From: Escherichia coli
GTDB lineage: Bacteria > Pseudomonadota > Gammaproteobacteria > Enterobacterales > Enterobacteriaceae
Assembly: GCF_024700885.2 (NCBI RefSeq)
Contig: NZ_CP117016.1
Length of the DNA stretch: 64,000 nt
Direction: 5' to 3' (one strand)
In this document: positions 2,753 to 2,813 of the stretch, in pieces
How positions within the stretch are numbered: position 1 is the stretch's first letter
Layout: each line of letters opens with the position of its first letter
Notes under the pieces: model-generated
Told to the model about the DNA's origin: nothing
Seen by the model: the letters and a program-made list of their open reading frames with translations, nothing else
Database searches by the model: none
Made by a program: the position numbers and the translations under genes

Positions 2753-2813
2753 TCACTCTGTTTAACGGGAGCATGGAATTATTCCATGCTCCGCTGCCAA
2801 AATGAAATAAAAA

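Follow-up and report, generated by a model that had tools for sequence, protein, structure and literature searches.

A perfect palindrome between the DUF1471 and NOX-like genes of an accessory Escherichia coli operon most likely forms an ordinary mRNA stem-loop

What a long and perfect palindrome does between two co-oriented genes, and whether it acts as DNA or as RNA, is the question raised by an accessory module of Escherichia coli. The module lies between rpiA and argP (then scpA), consists in order of a divergent LysR-family gene and of azoreductase-like, DUF1471 and NOX-like genes (Table 1), and is carried by about 229-233 of 5426 complete E. coli genomes (~4%). A bacterial NOX homolog of E. 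coli has been mentioned in the literature as 'EcNOX' (PMC5676040), and the operon as a whole, combining a NOX-family flavocytochrome, an azoreductase-like enzyme and a DUF1471 stress protein, is poorly studied. A sequence-only reading of the window (i.e., the whole 64-kb stretch of DNA that was analysed) had pointed to a near-perfect 12-bp palindrome in the 61-nt gap between the last two genes, and had considered it either an operator for a dimeric regulator or an RNA stem-loop affecting the expression of the NOX-like gene. The gap is as described, extending from the DUF1471 stop codon (2750-2752) to the NOX-like ATG at 2814, whereas "near-perfect" was an understatement: the arms GGAGCATGGAAT (2768-2779) and ATTCCATGCTCC (2781-2792) are 100% complementary, and the lone T between them (2780) is the only unpaired position of the inverted repeat in DNA.

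Table 1. Genes and intercistronic elements of the module, in coordinates of the window
Feature	Position	Strand	Description
LysR-family regulator gene	844-1740	-	divergent; presumed operon regulator
FMN-dependent NADH-azoreductase-like (azoR-like) gene	1841-2475	+	first operon gene; frameshifted in the window
DUF1471 (YdgH/BhsA/McbA-like) gene	2492-2752	+	86 aa; signal peptide; strong Shine-Dalgarno (SD) sequence AAGGAG
Spacer from DUF1471 stop codon to stem base	2753-2767	+	15 nt
Stem-loop	2768-2792	+	11-bp stem GGAGCAUGGAA/UUCCAUGCUCC, UUA loop; 12+12 perfect palindrome in DNA
NOX-like leader	2793-2813	+	A-rich, unstructured, without SD; A-run length strain-variable
NOX-like flavocytochrome gene	2814-4139	+	441 aa; ferric-reductase transmembrane, FAD and NAD domains; no SD

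The palindrome is real and non-random. It is the longest perfect inverted repeat within the window, and when perfect arms separated by a spacer of at most 8 nt were counted and compared with 100 dinucleotide shuffles of the 64-kb sequence, one repeat with arms of at least 12 nt was observed against a mean of 0.05 expected, and nine with arms of at least 10 nt against 0.65; the 25-mer itself had no match in the 100 shuffles. The structure prediction proposed earlier for the intergenic transcript turned out in favor of a stable fold: as RNA, the 61-nt spacer reaches -18.8 kcal/mol (z = -4.25), with none of 200 shuffles equally stable, and a wider stretch of 86 nt reaches -20 kcal/mol (z = -4.59). 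The hairpin, whose stem contains six G-C pairs (50% G+C), is still the dominant local element in both the MFE and the centroid structure of a 241-nt fold. It begins 15 nt after the DUF1471 stop codon, a distance that would let it form clear of the terminating ribosome, and ends 21 nt before the NOX start codon. The same 241-nt fold, in both structures, also pairs the NOX leader and start codon (2797-2822) with a U7 run (2860-2875), which would further occlude the SD-less NOX start; the pairs are almost all A-U and the prediction is a weak one.

Intrinsic terminators, too, place a stem-loop shortly after a stop codon, and an 11-bp stem of -18.8 kcal/mol is stable enough to be part of one. The absence of a U-run on which the earlier reading had based its doubts was nonetheless confirmed. 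No T-run flanks the stem on either strand (the plus strand continues GCTGCCAAAATGAAAT, the minus strand CGTTAAACAGAGTG), no U-rich tract follows it on the 3' side (GCUGCCAAAAUGAAAU on the plus and CGUUAAACAGAGUG on the minus strand), the 16 nt after the stem contain only 3 U, and neither the terminator scan nor the promoter scan calls anything at the palindrome. Intrinsic terminators differ from this element by the 7-8 nt U-tract that is missing here on both strands, by the A-rich sequence that here comes after the stem, and by the 50% G+C of its stem. A terminator serving the opposite strand was rejected, since the U-rich run of the minus strand comes before the stem and not after it.

A leaky attenuator, i.e., a weak intrinsic terminator or pause hairpin, possibly Rho-assisted on the untranslated NOX leader and passing a fraction of the polymerases, is a rival reading that we regard as quite improbable. 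Stem strength and geometry are indistinguishable from those of terminator stems, and poor initiation of NOX translation would expose the nascent RNA to Rho; on the other hand, besides the lack of a U-tract and of a terminator call, no C>G bias is found over the next 50-200 nt, and a downstream Rut site was dropped as a candidate for the same reason. E. coli hairpins devoid of a U-tract are not known to bring about efficient termination (summarised in PMC6061677). Rho-dependent transcripts also end at U-less stem-loops (Dar and Sorek, 2018; PMC6061677), and the same authors note that a scarcity of U after a stem-loop may be a sign of intrinsic termination of low efficiency or of termination assisted by Rho (PMC6061677). 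Those terminal stem-loops resemble the present one in their terminator-like stem energy and geometry and in the lack of both a uridine tract and an upstream A-tract, but a mild C>G bias (rut) comes after them and they stand at the end of operons (PMC6061677), while the hairpin described here lies inside one and has no such bias after it.

Membership in a family of repeats was considered as well. A search for the same palindrome elsewhere in the genome, which the sequence-only reading had suggested, covered 5426 complete E. coli genomes and returned one site per carrier genome and no further copies: the element is single-copy and confined to the 233 island carriers, the second place listed for each genome being the palindrome matching its own opposite strand. 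REP/BIME elements, MITEs, IS ends and other dispersed repeats are thereby ruled out. No Rfam family matched the hairpin even at E<=10 (Rfam 15, positions 1-8000 of the window), the sole match in that interval being a sub-threshold chance match at 3740-3766. Two protein-binding or processing functions of the RNA were dropped, namely a CsrA site (GGA near the loop), because the apical GGA is AGA in the E. whittamii sequence (L010) and absent from the Salmonella loop, and an RNase III site, because the stem of 11-12 bp was considered too short. Canonical RNase III substrates need stems longer than that.

The alternative in which the palindrome works as DNA, as an operator for a dimeric factor (the divergent LysR protein or another) that would form a roadblock or control an internal or antisense promoter, has the perfect 25-bp dyad symmetry in its favor, together with a promoter-like site (10/12) on the minus strand at 2745-2718, just beyond the palindrome. 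The LysR gene, however, which had been called adjacent, lies about 1 kb upstream and is divergent from the first operon gene; the LysR-azoR control region has a separate and unrelated LTTR-type dyad, an imperfect GATCATGATTGTT-N10-AACAATGAAGTTC within 1735-1770 that overlaps both the start codon of LysR and the region of the divergent promoter, and this dyad (ATTGTT-N10-AACAAT) is, judging from its sequence and expected position, the likely binding site of the regulator. The palindrome shares with LysR-type sites (T-N11-A dyad) the dyad symmetry, but stands about 0.9 kb into the operon rather than in the divergent promoter, belongs to another sequence class and has far longer, perfect arms. 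Perfect 12-bp arms around a 1-bp centre are, to our knowledge, atypical of operators. Moreover, the half-site occurs nowhere else in the window, with none at two or fewer mismatches in the promoter region, and no plus-strand promoter is predicted for the NOX-like gene. Of the sigma-70-like matches in the region, the minus-strand site (2718-2745, TAGAAA-16-TATAAT) is the best; it lies antisense to the 3'-terminal part of the DUF1471 gene and probably arises from the G+C content of the island, which is low here (~40%). A further, shorter repeat is present in the presumed 5' UTR of the operon, a perfect 7-bp inverted repeat CTCTCAT-N7-ATGAGAG at 1813-1833, which precedes the ancestral azoR start codon by 8 nt; the Santai allele conserves it, L013 has one substitution in the left arm, and the terminator scan flags it on the minus strand.

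Natural variation bears on the choice between DNA and RNA. Each of the 233 complete E. coli genomes with the island keeps the stem, at one site, and 232 of them fall into four allele classes. The perfect palindrome, with the stem unchanged, is found in 111 genomes; T2782A (five genomes) widens the loop to 5 nt and keeps a 10-bp stem; G2769A together with G2793T (63 genomes) gives an A-C mismatch on the plus strand that is accommodated when the pairing shifts register and bulges out an A (-14.8 kcal/mol); and T2779C with A2781G and C2784T (53 genomes) replaces the apical U-A by C-G and turns one G-C into G-U (-16.5 kcal/mol). The cryptic Escherichia clades retain the stem too, with the G-U state at the variable pair in L012 and L027, G-U plus the apical C-G in L013, and A-U at the variable pair plus a bulged A in E. 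whittamii (L010). Across the Escherichia alignment one stem pair shows GC, GU and AU, and another UA and CG; 96.3% of pair cells are standard, as compared to 34-58% after the 3' partners are slid by 1-3 columns. The covariation score was reached by 16 of 500 shuffles, a figure that stems from few independent events and that, according to the tool itself, is not a probability. These allelic changes are mostly structure-preserving (G-C to G-U to A-U, and apical U-A to C-G), which is supportive rather than decisive, and conservation within the species is too recent to prove selection.

Symmetric double changes preserve the DNA dyad as well as the RNA stem and would be compatible with an operator; the 53 carriers of the third variant (53/233), along with L012, L013 and L027, instead hold an asymmetric G:T that spoils the DNA dyad and keeps the RNA stem, and in Salmonella, as described below, the fold is preserved and the half-site sequence is not. 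The operator, one of the two options first put forward for the palindrome, is hence the least likely of the rival explanations, and we consider it highly improbable. As regards the strand, folding of the G-U allele favors the plus over the minus strand by 4.8 kcal/mol, which points to the sense transcript, while the allele of the 63 genomes, with A-C on the plus strand, would have G-U on the minus strand and points weakly to the latter. The main argument for the plus strand is simply that the genes lie on it.

NOX-like relatives of about 50% identity occur in three further contexts. In Salmonella enterica (L014) the whole LysR/azoR/DUF1471/NOX module is found at a different chromosomal site, with the NOX protein 51% and the DUF1471 protein 37% identical to those of E. 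coli. The DUF1471-NOX spacer of this operon is not alignable with that of E. coli, and contains nevertheless a hairpin of different sequence, CAGG-A-CACGGGU/AAUU/GCCCGUG-CCUG. A distance of 18 nt separates this hairpin from the ATG; no U-run comes after it, and the leader that follows is A-rich. The 78-nt Salmonella spacer folds with -21 kcal/mol (z = -4.6, none of 200 shuffles equally stable), about -18 of which is reached by the hairpin alone; MAFFT and RNAalifold misaligned this hairpin, and the spacer was therefore judged by its own fold and not by column-wise covariation. The distance from the DUF1471 stop codon to the hairpin is 15 nt in E. coli and 30 nt in Salmonella, that from the hairpin to the ATG 21 and 18 nt, respectively. 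The maintenance of an 11-bp stem in spite of a replaced primary sequence is the strongest evidence obtained here for selection on the fold. A third DUF1471-bearing lineage (L015 and L022, with the gene intact or decayed) has a weak structure overlapping the SD (z of -0.75 and -2.9), so that the strong hairpin is not universal among DUF1471-bearing operons; the three lineages are about equally distant from one another. Conservation in orthologous loci, which had been named as a test of function, thus holds for the Escherichia clades and, with a different sequence, for Salmonella, and is weak in L015/L022. In the operons without DUF1471 (L016 and L017) the azoR-NOX spacers are short and unstructured. 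The occurrence of the hairpin together with the DUF1471 gene suggests a functional tie to the 3' end of the DUF1471 cistron.

Searches for additional orthologs added little to this sample. Among genome contigs, the NOX protein was recovered only in Escherichia, plus one unrelated alphaproteobacterial match, and the DUF1471 protein search returned Escherichia orthologs only; tblastn against plasmids gave only distant paralogs (<=41% identity), and a metagenome scan with a back-translated pattern of the DUF1471 C-terminus gave, apart from unrelated genes, only known E. coli alleles and one contig of low coverage and many errors (L031).

The association with DUF1471 would also be expected if the stem were a functionless relic, for instance the former terminator of a DUF1471 cassette that was once independent and came to lie between azoR and NOX; loss of the terminator's U-tract would have kept NOX transcribed. 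The DUF1471 gene has its own strong SD, operons without it have no hairpin, and the island is eroding in E. coli, where the age of the alleles gives no proof of selection. In two lineages with DUF1471 proteins of only 37% identity and spacers that otherwise do not align, however, an 11-bp stem would not survive in neutral sequence, and the Escherichia changes are biased to pair-preserving ones; a relic seems to us an unlikely origin.

The explanation that we favor, and to which we would give about an even chance, is that the palindrome acts as RNA and not as DNA, as a sense-strand intercistronic stem-loop shielding the upstream message from 3'-5' exonucleases. The stem-loop option of the earlier reading fares well in this respect, given the stem kept across Escherichia alleles and the hairpin of different sequence at the same spot of the Salmonella operon. 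In published operons, PNPase and RNase II are blocked from upstream segments by stable stem-loops that stand at cistron boundaries and have no U-tract; cleavage and degradation fall on the segment of lower ribosome density, and such stem-loops are often conserved between E. coli and Salmonella (Dar and Sorek, 2018; PMC5927463). The hairpin shares several features with such barriers, being a stable stem-loop devoid of a U-tract, placed between two co-oriented cistrons and conserved in orthologous operons, with the weak structure of L015/L022 as an exception. The energy of the duplex with the anti-SD, taken as a proxy for translation, is -8.2 kcal/mol for DUF1471 and +0.4 kcal/mol for the NOX-like gene in E. 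coli, and the same contrast, weaker, is found in Salmonella (-5.6 vs. -2.5 kcal/mol).

If the genes are co-transcribed, RNA polymerase would read through the hairpin, since no U-tract comes after the stem. The NOX segment, presumably poorly translated, devoid of an SD and A/U-rich in both its leader and its early coding region, would then be preferentially cut by RNase E or prematurely terminated, and PNPase and RNase II would trim the transcript back in the 3'-5' direction until they stall at the hairpin. A stable azoR-DUF1471 or DUF1471 message would remain, with the DUF1471 gene as the cistron proposed to be stabilised, and one promoter may thereby give a higher output of DUF1471, a small secreted protein, than of the membrane-bound flavocytochrome. 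The operon is decaying in many strains, so that any function of the hairpin may be vestigial.

The intergenic archetype of differential operon decay is malE-malF (PMC5927463). The present operon resembles it and the set of Dar and Sorek (2018; PMC5927463) in the U-tract-less stem-loop, in the predicted contrast between a well-translated upstream and a poorly translated downstream membrane-protein cistron, and in the conservation between Escherichia and Salmonella. The malE-malF element is, unlike this single-copy and unique hairpin, a multi-copy REP, and most elements of that set are located inside the downstream coding region (PMC5927463), whereas this one is intergenic.

The hairpin could instead serve the downstream gene, either by protecting the 5' end of the NOX message after an upstream RNase E cleavage, in the manner of papBA or ompA, or by insulating the A-rich, SD-less ribosome-binding site of NOX, whose single-stranded state would set the rate of translation. 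The distance from hairpin to ATG, alike in E. coli and Salmonella (21 and 18 nt) where that from the DUF1471 stop differs (15 and 30 nt), agrees with such a role, as does the A-rich unstructured leader after both hairpins; the pairing of the A-rich binding site with the U-run at about 2864-2870 in the wider fold indicates that local structure could matter there. Protection of the papBA type is documented (PMC5927463), and the papB-papA and ompA 5' protective hairpins are similar in lying in an intercistronic spacer shortly upstream of a start codon, though in those systems the downstream gene is highly expressed and here it has no SD. Where NOX directly follows azoR (L016, L017) the hairpin is absent, which argues that NOX itself needs none, and by the ribosome-density rule instability is expected of the gene with the weak binding site. 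In our judgment it is thus rather unlikely that the hairpin serves the downstream gene.

The conserved hairpin-to-ATG distance and the A-rich flank common to the E. coli and Salmonella versions would also suit a riboregulatory module, in which a protein or Hfq/sRNA bound to the hairpin and its (ARN)n-like 3' flank would hold back translation of the SD-less NOX cistron until a signal arrives. We deem it very doubtful; if true, a potentially ROS-generating membrane oxidoreductase would be kept silent, which differs from passive protection against decay.

All considered, the most likely identity of the palindrome is an ordinary stem-loop in the mRNA of an accessory E. coli operon, placed between two of its genes. 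The hairpin adds a new, so far unannotated case to a familiar class of features and does not found a class of its own; it opens no new question of RNA biology. Should protection of the upstream message from exonucleases be its function, it would add another example of how a single promoter can yield proteins in unequal amounts. A low NOX output would then be expected from the hairpin and the SD-less leader, which would be useful to know when expressing or studying the operon.

The surrounding module shows several signs of erosion. In the window, the azoR-like gene carries a 5-bp tandem duplication (GCGGA GCGGA, 1891-1900) with respect to the Santai and L013 alleles, which shifts the frame after codon 17 and leads to a stop at about 1904; as a consequence the RefSeq ORF of an identical strain starts at 1915 and has lost the N-terminal flavin-binding segment, and the gene is likely, judging from these differences, a pseudogene or N-terminally truncated in this strain. 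Among the loci examined for erosion (L004, L007, L008, L009, L024 and L028), NOX ORFs are truncated in several strains. Strain AF10 carries IS1 and ISKpn26 (IS5-family) insertions, the latter at CTAA right after NOX codon 4; in L028 the LysR gene is truncated, azoR is lost and IS1 lies within the NOX region; and only the C-terminus of NOX is left in L009.

The A-runs near the NOX start (2802-2822) vary as well, with 6, 7 or 8 A before the ATG among L002, L010, L012, L013, L029, L035 and L036, and with A5 (L010) or A7 (L012) in place of A6 after it, by which the reading frame is shifted. This variation could reflect a slippage-prone on/off behaviour or simply decay. A mini-ORF of two codons, ATG AAA TAA (2802-2810), precedes the NOX start by 3 nt; its stop is lost in L013, where the ORF is four codons longer.

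Elsewhere in the window, eight other perfect inverted repeats with arms of 10-11 nt are present, including those at 14433-14456, 49097-49123 and 49176-49199. The repeats at 14433-14456 (GCGCCCATGAA-C-TTCATGGGCGC) and at 49176-49199, the latter of A and T only, are among those that have no T-run, and some of the eight look terminator-like, such as the one at 38628-38653, followed by TTCTTTT.
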